A DNA stretch of 16,069 nt from a virus (lineage: Duplodnaviria; Heunggongvirae; Uroviricota; Caudoviricetes). Below, piece after piece: positions 2,402 through 2,605 of the stretch; positions within the stretch are counted from its first letter, which is position 1; each line of letters opens with the position of its first letter. The DNA is taken from IMG/VR virus record IMGVR_UViG_2526164651_000005, one strand, 5' to 3'. The notes beneath the pieces are model-generated. The model had not been told where the DNA came from and searched no databases. It worked only from the letters and a program-made list of their open reading frames with translations. The translations under genes were made by a program, and so were the position numbers.

Positions 2402-2504
2402 CTTTTCCCGTAAGTCAGGATCTAAACGGAACTGGAACGGAGGATTACCACGCCTTTCGTTTTTGTGTGTTGACACGTTAATTACACCTCATGTAGTGTA
2501 TTTA

Positions 2505-2525
2505 TGTGTAATGACACATTACACA
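2505..2525. promoter_or_regulatory. Perfect inverted repeat TGTGTAATG-ACA-CATTACACA (9-bp arms, 3-bp spacer); candidate operator in a divergent control region
   Basis: Exact dyad symmetry. Lies between the leftward small-ORF unit and the rightward primase operon, about 30 bp downstream of a consensus TTGACA hexamer (2470..2475). Confidence 0.4.
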
Positions 2526-2543
2526 CAATCAACACAAAAAGCA

Positions 2544-2576
2544 AAGCCCCGCACTGTAGGAGCAGTAACGGGGCTT
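2544..2576 (-). other. GC-rich stem-loop (AAGCCCCG...CGGGGCTT) with a T-rich tract on the minus-strand side; possible minus-strand terminator or structured leader / small RNA element
   Basis: 8-bp outer stem plus inner ACTG/CAGT pairing. On the minus strand the hairpin is followed by TTTGCTTTTTGTGTT. It sits between the operator palindrome and the first rightward ORF. Confidence 0.3.
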
Positions 2577-2605
2577 CTAACCAACAACGTAAACTAGGAG
2601 CCGTT

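Follow-up and report, generated by a model that had tools for sequence, protein, structure and literature searches.

The DNA analyzed here (hereafter the window) is a stretch of 16,069 nucleotides from the Caudoviricetes record IMGVR_UViG_2526164651_000005. It adjoins phoQ and holds a capsid-forming phage-inducible chromosomal island (cf-PICI) of the EcCIEDL933 type: int, alpA and primase genes are accompanied by the island's own capsid, protease, portal, HNH and terminase (TerS, TerL) genes, and tail genes are absent. An O157 relative sits between roxA and the same module. The alpA gene (1605..1793, plus strand, 62 aa) is recognized by Pfam Phage_AlpA (E=5e-18), and AlpA is both the published activator and the only published regulator of Gram-negative PICIs (PMC6092414; 10.1101/2022.09.08.507074). 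Further along the plus strand, an Icd-like cell-division inhibitor of 66 aa (2606..2806) is the first gene of an operon that continues with DUF4222 and primase genes. It scores 64.6 bits against NCBIfam phage_ICD_like (NF033153), above the curated cutoff of 25, and PGAP gives the Icd-like name to the first gene in relatives. Between alpA and icd, on the minus strand, lies a gene for a 59-aa ribbon-helix-helix (RHH) protein (2297..2476).

The interval 2402-2605 had been described in a first-pass annotation as a divergent control region with a TTGACA hexamer (2470-2475), a perfect palindrome (2505-2525), a GC-rich stem-loop (2544-2576) and a ribosome-binding site for the rightward operon. Each of these lies where it was placed, the last being the Shine-Dalgarno sequence AGGAG (2596-2600) ahead of the icd ATG (2606-2608), and the region is indeed divergent, the RHH gene facing away from the icd-primase operon. 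Are such features more than chance? Perfect inverted repeats with arms of 9 bp are not rare, as one in three first-order Markov simulations of the window yields one, and a second is present at 10624-10643; by within-window statistics alone the palindrome is unremarkable. The features are considered real because they recur in relatives and not because of such statistics. The -35 hexamer, the hairpin and a box following it, as well as the placing of the repeats, are found again in approximately 100 distinct related control regions. Their layout is constant: the -35 is invariant, the -10 is flanked by sites of 11-12 bp that differ by type, and the hairpin and the first gene follow. The hairpin is kept through compensatory changes, and in other types the position of the palindrome is taken by repeats specific to the type. 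A blastn search of 2440-2680 against 50,697 phage records gave no match, and a scan of genome contigs returned only two loci, because that collection has one genome per species.

The TTGACA hexamer was correctly singled out: it is the conserved -35 element of the predicted rightward promoter of the icd, DUF4222 and primase operon (hereafter P_R). TTGAC or TTGAA occupies this position in nearly all distinct control regions, with few variants such as TTGGC or TTGCG, and the element is also kept in relatives where the hexamer overlaps no coding sequence. The accompanying -10 is weak in the window and can be read as TGTAGT (16 bp spacing) or TAGTGT (18 bp) within 2492..2499; in L051-type relatives its homologue reads TATAAT, and in L001 TGTAAT or TAATGT. 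A simple promoter scan of the window flagged neither P_R nor a second, leftward promoter within icd that is discussed below, P_R being missed because of its weak -10. Transcription from this putative sigma-70 promoter, which would drive the whole operon, is predicted to start near 2505-2507, inside the palindrome.

The divergent gene begins within the same promoter. Its GTG start and the following two codons (GTG TCA ACA, 2476..2468) overlap the -35 hexamer, its Shine-Dalgarno sequence is GAGGTG (2490..2485), and a terminator-like hairpin just past its stop codon (2261..2287, minus strand; 12-bp stem with 7 GC pairs) is the predicted end of the leftward repressor transcript. PGAP assigns the near-identical protein WP_000103622.1 to the YlcI/YnfO family; the window protein itself reaches 20 bits against that family (NF041551), below the curated cutoff of 30, and a second RHH subfamily in relatives reaches 71.4 bits. 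In the RefSeq record of an O157 element of the EcCIEDL933 type, the gene is unannotated. Several lines of evidence bear on the fold of the protein. It matches the Arc-like repressors of PHROG 228 (E=2e-6), and a 12-sequence family profile aligns to residues 6-50 of P22 Arc, that is, the whole fold, with E=0.04, Arc being the best real match in the PDB. The AlphaFold model has two helices (20-33 and 38-53) with pLDDT >90 and an unstructured N-terminus, which fits a monomer of an obligate dimer, and of the 38 Foldseek matches to this model the majority are RHH proteins, among them the entire top 12 (rmsd 0.6-1.0 A over 35-39 residues; E>1). The profile and Foldseek values are individually weak because the domain is tiny; taken together the lines agree, and on sequence and model the protein is assigned the beta-alpha-alpha RHH fold, which spans about 45 residues. 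A pN/pS of 0.05 points to strong purifying selection on its reading frame.

A 12-bp candidate operator, GTGTnnTGACAC, occurs twice in the control region. The copy at 2465-2476 (GTGTGTTGACAC), which the first-pass annotation missed, overlaps the -35, and the copy at 2506-2517 (GTGTAATGACAC) is extended by inverted half-sites into the 21-bp perfect palindrome TGTGTAATG-ACA-CATTACACA (2505..2525), the predicted main operator, which covers the predicted P_R start. A further operator-like site, GTTAATTACAC (2477..2487), with the half-site GTGTAAT on the minus strand, lies between the -35 and the -10, and every operator type has an 11-12 bp site of its own at this position. Where the RHH protein is of another type, different type-specific repeats occupy the position of the palindrome; the control regions of the O157 and L046 types are marked by ATGGTAATTACC and AGTGGTCACCT, respectively. 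The promoter carries two to three repeated sites that are candidates for RHH binding. RHH repressors read DNA through their N-terminal strand and bind, as a dimer of dimers, to sites that are repeated or palindromic.

Which protein, then, would occupy these sites? At least 12 operator types exist, each paired with its own RHH variant, and operator type tracks RHH type closely (AMI 0.90), which argues that the palindrome is the operator of the 59-aa protein. The variation in the RHH proteins between types is concentrated in the beta-strand, which reads FQFRL, YQMRL, FRMRI, FQIRI, TARIP, TVRVP or AARVP, among others, with one arginine invariant. A Mannheimia relative whose RHH protein is of the window type has the same operator motif in the same place, within a spacer that has otherwise diverged. 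The suggestion that the palindrome is a repressor operator is therefore upheld as far as its behavior across relatives is concerned, with binding by the RHH protein as the prediction. The pairing could in part reflect tight linkage, as the RHH gene lies less than 100 bp from the operators and alpA approximately 700 bp away. AlpA and a repressor of the helper phage had been suggested as proteins to test for binding, and AlpA is the one regulator of these islands in the literature, yet operator type is independent of AlpA type (AMI 0.02): most operator types share one AlpA allele, and as many as five AlpA alleles accompany a single operator type. Binding of the palindrome by either of these proteins is accordingly very improbable, and alpA is regarded here as context.

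Bound at these sites, the RHH repressor would keep RNA polymerase from both the -35 and the P_R start site. It would probably also autoregulate its own leftward promoter, which must lie within the same operators. Reading of the window sequence gave no convincing separate leftward promoter for the RHH gene; O157-type relatives have a good one (TTGATT, 16 bp, TACAAT) between the stem-loop terminator described below and the RHH gene.

The GC-rich stem-loop (2544..2576) consists of the arms AAGCCCCG (2544-2551) and CGGGGCTT (2569-2576) with an inner helix ACTG/CAGT. Across the alignment of its variants 94.8% of cells are paired and four pairs show compensatory changes, a level of covariation reached in none of 500 shuffles. 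For which strand was this structure selected? Over seven pair columns the variants have 42 G·U cells on the minus strand against a single one on the plus strand, where A·C or C·A mismatches stand in place of the minus-strand G·U pairs. The minus-strand fold (stem of -17 to -25 kcal/mol) is the more stable in 32 of the 34 variants, with the plus strand often weaker by 6-10 kcal/mol. The G·U asymmetry and the fold stability indicate that selection acted on the minus-strand RNA. On that strand the hairpin is followed by TTTGCTTTTTGTG, scored as terminator-like in a scan; the tail (2532..2543) reads UGCUUUUUGUGU on the RNA, and its U-tract is interrupted (UGCUUUUU). The first 10 nt of the tail contain 5-8 U on the minus strand (mean 6.9 over 24 distinct tails) against 2.4 on the plus strand. 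On sequence, the hallmarks of an intrinsic, Rho-independent terminator are present on the minus strand only, and the earlier remark that the stem-loop reads as a minus-strand terminator was correct.

The same annotation had also placed the stem-loop in a structured leader RNA of the rightward transcript, likening the arrangement to P4 immunity. The hairpin does lie in the predicted 5' untranslated region of P_R and does fold on the plus strand in the window, the operon begins with an Icd-like gene as in P1 immI, and some relatives use a C4 RNA, so that a hairpin working in the manner of P4 CI or P1 C4, or as an attenuator ahead of the primase operon, deserves consideration. Against it stand the minus-strand selection and stability described above and the absence of a plus-strand U-tract. 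A search of the whole window with Rfam (E<=5) yielded no C4, c4-a1b1 or isrK and nothing credible; the only match on the region, at 24 bits, is to an unrelated leader, one that happens to include a terminator. As a positive control, the C4 model scores 71.6 bits in the relative L039 (2808-2895), and where relatives carry a true C4 RNA and its target, these are located downstream of icd and ahead of a second Icd-like gene. The loop is also unconserved in relatives and a complement to it, sought across the window at the suggestion of the first-pass annotation, was not found. A rightward leader RNA is consequently highly unlikely, and the likeness to P4 immunity is not sustained. Roles for the loop sequence TAGGAG as a Shine-Dalgarno mimic or as a distant kissing site were rejected likewise, since the loop varies freely and finds no complement in the window.

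If the hairpin ends a leftward RNA, where does that RNA begin? A -10 hexamer, TATGAT, is present on the minus strand at 2619..2624, inside icd codons 5-7 (AAT CAT ATA). TATGAT, TATGCT, TATAAT or TAGAAT is found 42-45 nt from the hairpin base in all 59 distinct downstream sequences of a pattern-anchored set, and at 46 nt in the Mannheimia relative; the hexamer is kept across five different 5' ends of the first gene and with two first genes that are not icd (those of L089 and, at 46 nt, L198). Of the four histidine codons of icd, the one within this hexamer is CAT and the others are CAC. Since the hexamer overlaps conserved codons (Asn-His), its persistence within the Icd classes is partly due to constraint on the protein. 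This promoter has a weak -35 or none: Icd classes A and C have a -35-like TTGTGT 17 bp upstream (2642..2647 in the window), and in class B an extended TGn -10 takes its place.

The stem-loop is thus most likely the terminator of a short opposite-strand RNA that covers the icd ribosome-binding site. From this promoter, lying within icd codons 5-14, and the terminator we infer an RNA of approximately 78 nt that would start near 2612 and end at the GC-rich stem-loop, close to 2534 (within 2532..2612). It is predicted to form two hairpins. The 5' one (2577..2611) contains an RNAalifold helix joining columns 3-6 with 33-36, in which a conserved box (CTAACCA on the plus strand, 2577-2583) pairs with the antisense of the icd start codon and an anti-Shine-Dalgarno CUCCU is in or adjoins the loop. 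The predicted RNA is complementary to both the Shine-Dalgarno sequence and the ATG of icd. The window version folds at -30.5 kcal/mol (z=-3.55) with identical MFE and centroid structures; the two-hairpin architecture is common to all classes, with class-specific inner stems, and in each of 19 variants the 5' hairpin folds more stably as minus-strand RNA. Such an RNA would most likely block translation of icd, its presumed target, and by polarity that of the downstream operon, whenever the rightward transcript escapes repression, and its terminator would in addition keep leftward transcription out of the operators and the repressor promoter.

This last property could be the entire function of the hairpin, i.e., an insulator that stops leftward read-through from the operon, with no dedicated small RNA involved. 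Its terminator shape, the minus-strand selection and its position, which on the minus strand immediately precedes the stretch that must contain the repressor promoter, are all compatible with this. What an insulator leaves unexplained is the -10 hexamer at a fixed distance in every variant, non-icd first genes included, as well as the CTAACCA box and the 5' hairpin with its consistent minus-strand bias, and we regard it as unlikely. A second alternative is that the repressor mRNA starts inside icd and has the leftward RNA as its leader, with the hairpin as an attenuator that sets the repressor level by read-through. The lack of a convincing separate RHH promoter in the window speaks for it, and the interrupted U-tract makes some read-through plausible, but the terminator is strong (-19 to -25 kcal/mol) and O157-type relatives have the good promoter already mentioned between the terminator and the RHH gene; an attenuated repressor leader is somewhat less probable still than an insulator.

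With a cis-antisense RNA as the preferred reading, an RNA layer of control remains likely at this locus. The "repressor operator plus RNA or termination switch" of the first-pass annotation would then survive in part: the operator stands, the rightward leader RNA does not, and an antisense RNA from the opposite strand is its likely replacement. On comparative sequence grounds, region 2402-2605 is probably the central on/off switch of the island, in which an RHH repressor silences P_R and a cis-antisense RNA guards the transcripts that escape.

Full-text searches of the literature covering Icd with antisense RNA, PICI with ribbon-helix-helix, cf-PICI with repressor and the hairpin sequences found nothing that describes this module, and no transcript, start-site or binding data for the region were found there. 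To our knowledge no repressor has been described for Gram-negative PICIs. In surveys, the YlcI/YnfO protein and Icd appear among the accessory genes and are given no role (PMC13612085, PMC10085698). A repressor-operator module in at least 12 types, together with a predicted antisense RNA, provides concrete candidates for how these islands stay silent. It could show how islands that share a cell avoid cross-talk and why induction needs AlpA, and the specificity types would serve the engineering of PICI-based delivery vehicles.

The closest parallel is the immunity I region of phage P22 (mnt / Pant-Omnt / arc / sar / ant; general description in PMC2629481). Both, in the present case as predicted, combine small RHH repressors, an operator overlapping the promoter and a divergent repressor gene. 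P22 sar is reportedly a short cis-antisense RNA. Its promoter lies at the start of the regulated gene, and it covers the ribosome-binding site of that gene and has its own terminator, an arrangement also predicted here. The predicted RNA described here is without detectable sequence homology to sar. Other differences are that an icd-like and replication operon is regulated instead of an antirepressor, that there is one repressor gene and not two, that the host is a phage satellite rather than a phage, and that at least 12 specificity types exist. P1/P7 immI (c4 RNA, icd, ant) and P4 CI (RF01695 C4, RF03163 c4-a1b1) also belong to enterobacterial mobile elements with an Icd-like first gene, and in immI, as predicted here, the translation start of icd is the point of RNA control. 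However, the C4 and CI RNAs are cut from a same-strand leader and act through short complementary boxes, whereas the RNA predicted here is from the opposite strand and fully complementary.

Among Gram-positive PICIs, the SaPI repressor gene (Stl/Rpr) is divergent from the replication operon and keeps the island silent (PMC6092414), the same layout as found here. Those repressors are larger, are not RHH proteins and are inactivated by helper-phage proteins, whereas AlpA is the trigger published for the Gram-negative islands. In type I toxin-antitoxin systems such as hok/sok, a cis-antisense RNA likewise lies over the start of a small, potentially toxic protein, here, as predicted, a division inhibitor; the difference is that the presumed target in these islands heads a long replication operon that would also be under a protein repressor.

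One property of the locus lies outside what a repressor and an antisense RNA explain. A plus-strand reading frame of 248 codons (1851..2597, hereafter the bridge) has no stop between the stop codon of alpA and a TAG that precedes the icd ATG by 11 nt, running antisense through the RHH gene and then through the promoter, operators and hairpin. It is open in every one of 12 operator types that are roughly independent (joint null 10^-8.9), and this openness, judged from the sequences, is conserved and real. It might be proposed that the bridge is a genuine protein gene, fused to icd in some relatives, and that the palindrome, hairpin and leftward frame are incidental; in O157 a portion of it is annotated by PGAP as a pseudo "Icd-like" gene, and PHROG 29966 holds 188-aa proteins ending in Icd. 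Its translation, however, is rich in Cys, Ser and Arg, matches no family and is hypervariable between types. Its pN/pS is 0.15-0.68; over the RHH gene, where wobble positions are shared, the plus frame has 0.15 and the minus frame 0.05, and it is the RHH proteins that match curated families. On composition, family matches and pN/pS the 248-aa frame was rejected as a conventional gene, and that the control elements are incidental to it is very improbable.

An alternative, which we offer tentatively and consider rather doubtful, is that the bridge is a translated conduit, not a protein gene, joining AlpA activation to the repressor and antisense lock. Once the helper phage turns on alpA, transcripts from the alpA promoter would cross the repressor module, shielded from Rho by translation. 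Being antisense to the RHH gene and passing over its operators, they would cause repressor synthesis to collapse, and ribosomes would reach the icd start by termination-reinitiation or in-frame fusion, overriding the antisense RNA. If true, selection would here keep a frame open without acting on what it encodes. The AlpA of P. aeruginosa, an antiterminator (PMC9371919), was considered as the cause of such read-through and is not counted as evidence, since the name that it shares with PICI AlpA (Pfam PF05930) may be a coincidence.

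The window is a capsid-forming phage-inducible chromosomal island (PICI). Its genes run from an integrase (1-1230) and alpA (1605-1793) through an operon of the Icd-like first gene (icd, 2606-2806), DUF4222 (3396-3695) and a D5-type primase (3692-5443) to major capsid, prohead protease, portal, HNH, TerS and TerL (7120-13508), with phoQ at the right end. A leftward 59-aa ORF (2297..2476, minus strand; motif PPFQFRLDPDLREKM...SLAAWIKRII) faces the rightward promoter of the operon, bearing out the divergent control region proposed in the first-pass annotation. The features listed there were all found where it placed them: the -35 TTGACA (2470-2475), the perfect palindrome TGTGTAATG-ACA-CATTACACA (2505-2525), a stem-loop with arms AAGCCCCG (2544-2551) and CGGGGCTT (2569-2576) and an inner ACTG/CAGT helix, AGGAG (2596-2600) and the icd ATG (2606). 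On the minus strand, TTTGCTTTTTGTG lies directly 3' of this hairpin. The best reading of the region is a switch of a known kind, in a class of element with no previously recognised repressor.

Judged within the window alone, the palindrome is statistically unremarkable: a perfect inverted repeat with 9-bp arms occurs in one third of simulated windows, and the window holds another, with a 2-nt spacer, in the head-tail gene region (10624-10643). The earlier site list contained the palindrome and missed a second, imperfect operator copy, GTGTGTTGACAC at 2465-2476, which overlaps the -35 (compare GTGTAATGACAC at 2506-2517). A comparison of approximately 190 related loci, taken from IMG/VR, E. coli genomes and other assemblies, shows a common layout in about 100 distinct control regions. 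An A-rich tract precedes an invariant -35 (TTGAC or TTGAA); a type-specific site of 11-12 bp abuts the -35 on its downstream side, and the -10 is spaced 16-18 bp from the -35. The site recurs 22-30 bp away from that copy and often once more upstream of the -35. Next come, in order, the hairpin, a conserved CTAACCA box (2577-2583 in the window), the Shine-Dalgarno and the first gene. Across these control regions the sites belong to at least 12 unrelated sequence types (e.g., GTGTAAGACAC, GTGTTTAACAC, GTGGCTGACAC, ATGGTAATTACC, AGTGGTCACCT, and TGTACGTACGTAAC). No match to the module was found in the phage collection.

Every operator type is accompanied by its own variant of the divergent small protein. 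The 59-aa protein has a match in PHROG, the “Arc-like repressor” family, and at an E. coli locus nearly identical to this one its PGAP name is YlcI/YnfO family. Against PDB, the family profile has P22 Arc as its best real match, aligned across the entire fold (E=0.04); the AlphaFold model has an unstructured N-terminus followed by two confident helices, and its Foldseek matches, with weak E-values, are nearly all ribbon-helix-helix (RHH) proteins (NikR, CopG, Arc, PutA, AmrZ, ParD). The frame is under strong purifying selection (pN/pS 0.05). Two mutually alignable subfamilies share one invariant Arg in the predicted β-strand, where the differences between types cluster (FQFRL, YQMRL, FRMRI and FQIRI in one subfamily; TARIP, TVRVP, AARVP, SIRIP, NARFP and others in the second). 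Homologs across Enterobacterales, Mannheimia and Frischella are all annotated “hypothetical”, and in the E. coli O157:H7 strain 2149 locus (L003), an element of EcCIEDL933 type, the gene (L003 2543..2716, minus strand; 57 aa, ATG start) is unannotated in the RefSeq record.

What binds the palindrome? Among the 47 loci with both RHH and AlpA genes, operator type agrees with RHH type at an AMI of 0.90 and with AlpA type at 0.02, which supports the suggested repressor operator and argues against AlpA, one of the candidate binders named for it earlier. Operator and RHH N-terminal codons are less than 100 bp apart, so linkage contributes to this covariation; in the window's subfamily the repressor start and next two codons (GTG TCA ACA) read as the -35 region on the opposite strand. 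An independent check comes from a Mannheimia element with an FQFRL-type protein, in which the GTGTnnTGACAC motif recurs at the -35 and after the -10, as in the window, in a spacer that has otherwise diverged. From these comparisons we infer that the 59-aa RHH repressor uses the palindrome and its partner sites as operators. Both the -35 and the predicted start of the rightward promoter fall within these putative operators. The Mannheimia element, a Pasteurellaceae one (Mannheimia indoligenes, L198 306-1500), shares with the window its RHH type and operator motif as well as the hairpin and the leftward -10, and its first gene encodes an Ash-family protein, not Icd. In a Salmonella enterica locus (L196 1290-1520) with a further RHH type (β-strand IALRV), TGGTTGACA repeats lie at the promoter. 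This locus keeps the hairpin and the leftward -10 intact, and its truncated first gene adjoins a BrnT/BrnA toxin-antitoxin pair.

The hairpin had tentatively been read as part of a rightward leader RNA, in an arrangement resembling P4 immunity. Among 34 distinct variants the minus-strand RNA is the more stable in 32, often by 6-10 kcal/mol. In an alignment of 33 sequences 94.8% of cells are paired, four pairs are changed on both sides, and the observed covariation was reached by none of 500 shuffles. Cells that form G·U on the minus strand, and so would be A·C mismatches on the plus, number 42 and are distributed among seven pair columns; one cell is of the reverse kind. The 10 nt after the stem contain 5-8 U on the minus strand (mean 6.9) versus 2.4 on the plus. 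The loop is unconserved (TAGGAG, TTGGAG, CTGGGAA, GTAACGA, CATCAC and others), the complement sought for it elsewhere in the window was not found, and Rfam gave no C4, CI or isrK match in the window. Together these observations identify a leftward intrinsic terminator and not a rightward leader structure. The first interpretation holds in part, for the operator and the divergent region; it is mistaken on which strand the RNA element works and to which family it belongs.

A -10 (TATGAT, TATGCT, TATAAT, or TAGAAT) is the best minus-strand promoter match in each of the 59 distinct sequences rightward of the hairpin. Its 3' end sits 42-45 nt from the hairpin base, a distance that stays constant despite start codon shifts of up to 7 nt between classes. 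Two Icd classes have TTGTGT 17 bp upstream of it, and in a third the -10 is of the extended TGn kind. The -10 persists with non-icd first genes, in related locus L089 and before the Mannheimia Ash-family gene (46 nt). In the window the -10 (TATGAT, 2624..2619, minus strand) lies inside icd codons AAT CAT ATA, and its His codon is the sole CAT among four icd His codons, the others being CAC. A small hairpin, CACACAAACGGCCTTTGTGTG then GCGTTTTCTG (2641-2661, plus strand), inside icd is terminator-like on the plus strand and overlaps the -35 of the predicted leftward promoter.

The predicted leftward RNA (~2612 to ~2534) folds at -30.5 kcal/mol (z=-3.55), and its sequence complements both the Shine-Dalgarno and the start codon of the first gene. 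The terminator emerges again, independently, from RNAalifold, which adds a helix in which the conserved UGGU of the box pairs with the RNA 5' end, the start-codon antisense; this pairing accounts for the conservation of CTAACCA. The two-hairpin fold is common to every class, with class-specific inner stems in the 5' hairpin (AACG/CGUU, CGAUA/UAUCG, CGUUA/UAACG, ACGAA/UUCGU, ACUUA/UAAGU) and the anti-Shine-Dalgarno in or beside its loop. In all 19 variants of this 5' hairpin, the minus strand gives the more stable fold. We infer from these sequence features that a leftward antisense RNA exists and affects translation.

In the silent island, the RHH repressor bound to its operators would shut the rightward promoter, and probably also acts on the promoter of its own gene, necessarily located in the interval 2490-2545. 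Rightward transcripts escaping repression would pair with the predicted antisense RNA, blocking translation of the division inhibitor and, via polarity, of the replication operon, while the leftward terminator would keep leftward polymerases away from the operators. The proposed arrangement closely parallels P22 immunity I. The P22 sar antisense RNA, the subject of papers from 1987 and 1997, reportedly acts on the ribosome-binding site of the first regulated gene. Immunity I also has two RHH repressors and an operator overlapping the promoter (PMC2629481). The island likewise has a predicted RHH repressor, an operator over the promoter and a predicted antisense RNA on the ribosome-binding site of its first gene, which, being Icd-like, recalls P1 immI. 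Its RNA element is not a member of the C4/CI family. Relatives of the same operator type do carry a genuine C4 RNA (RF01695; in L039 71.6 bits, 2808-2895, plus strand) and its a1b1 target (L039 2692-2741, plus strand; 45.7 bits, slightly below the gathering score). There the pair follows the first icd and precedes another Icd-like gene (L039 2971-3117); the window is without this module.

Gram-negative PICIs were defined in a study that called their global repressor “unclear”, identified AlpA as an activator and described it as a mystery that Gram-positive islands differ in this way (PMC6092414). The paper on cf-PICIs demonstrates no more than a requirement for alpA (10.1101/2022.09.08.507074), and later surveys class YlcI/YnfO and Icd as accessory genes (PMC13612085; PMC10085698). 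Our literature search found no account of the module or the hairpin sequence.

One plus-strand frame is stop-free from the alpA stop (1791-1793; first ATG 1851) to a TAG at 2595-2597, 11 nt upstream of the icd ATG, crossing the RHH gene in antisense and then promoter, operators and hairpin. All 41 distinct operator variants keep exactly one plus frame open between the -35 and the end of the hairpin, versus 38% of shuffles (joint null 10^-8.9 for 12 roughly independent operator types), and this frame runs on without a break into an open stretch of 460-1440 nt. The stretch usually starts 13-60 nt past the alpA stop, in relatives where alpA is locatable. Its end usually falls ahead of the icd ATG, by 28 or 11 nt, or 10 nt beyond it, or else the stretch is in frame with icd. 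Its Cys-, Ser- and Arg-rich translation, with no family match, and its weak constraint (pN/pS 0.5-0.7 outside the RHH overlap) led us to reject a conventional protein. In O157, PGAP annotates a portion of the frame as a pseudo “Icd-like” gene (L003 2100-2693, opposite the RHH gene). One idea is that the frame is a translated conduit carrying AlpA-driven transcripts across the repressor module.

Immediately 3' of the alpA stop codon, a GC-rich inverted repeat, GCTGGCGGC ACGCA GCCGCCAC (1797-1822, plus strand), has no T-run and precedes the first ATG of this frame. Between alpA and the RHH gene, a leftward 58-aa ORF (2063..2239, minus strand) matches PHROG 21027 (E=4e-12) under weak constraint (pN/pS 0.43); an overlapping leftward ORF of 109 aa (1843..2172, minus strand) is without matches. 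Dense iterons lie in the gap 3' of the primase gene (5450-5710), a probable replication origin for the island: TAAGGTAGA occurs four times in tandem (5664-5708), and 5457-5477 and 5545-5565 hold inverted copies (TCTACC). The inverted repeats explain weak microRNA-like Rfam hits at 5522-5619.
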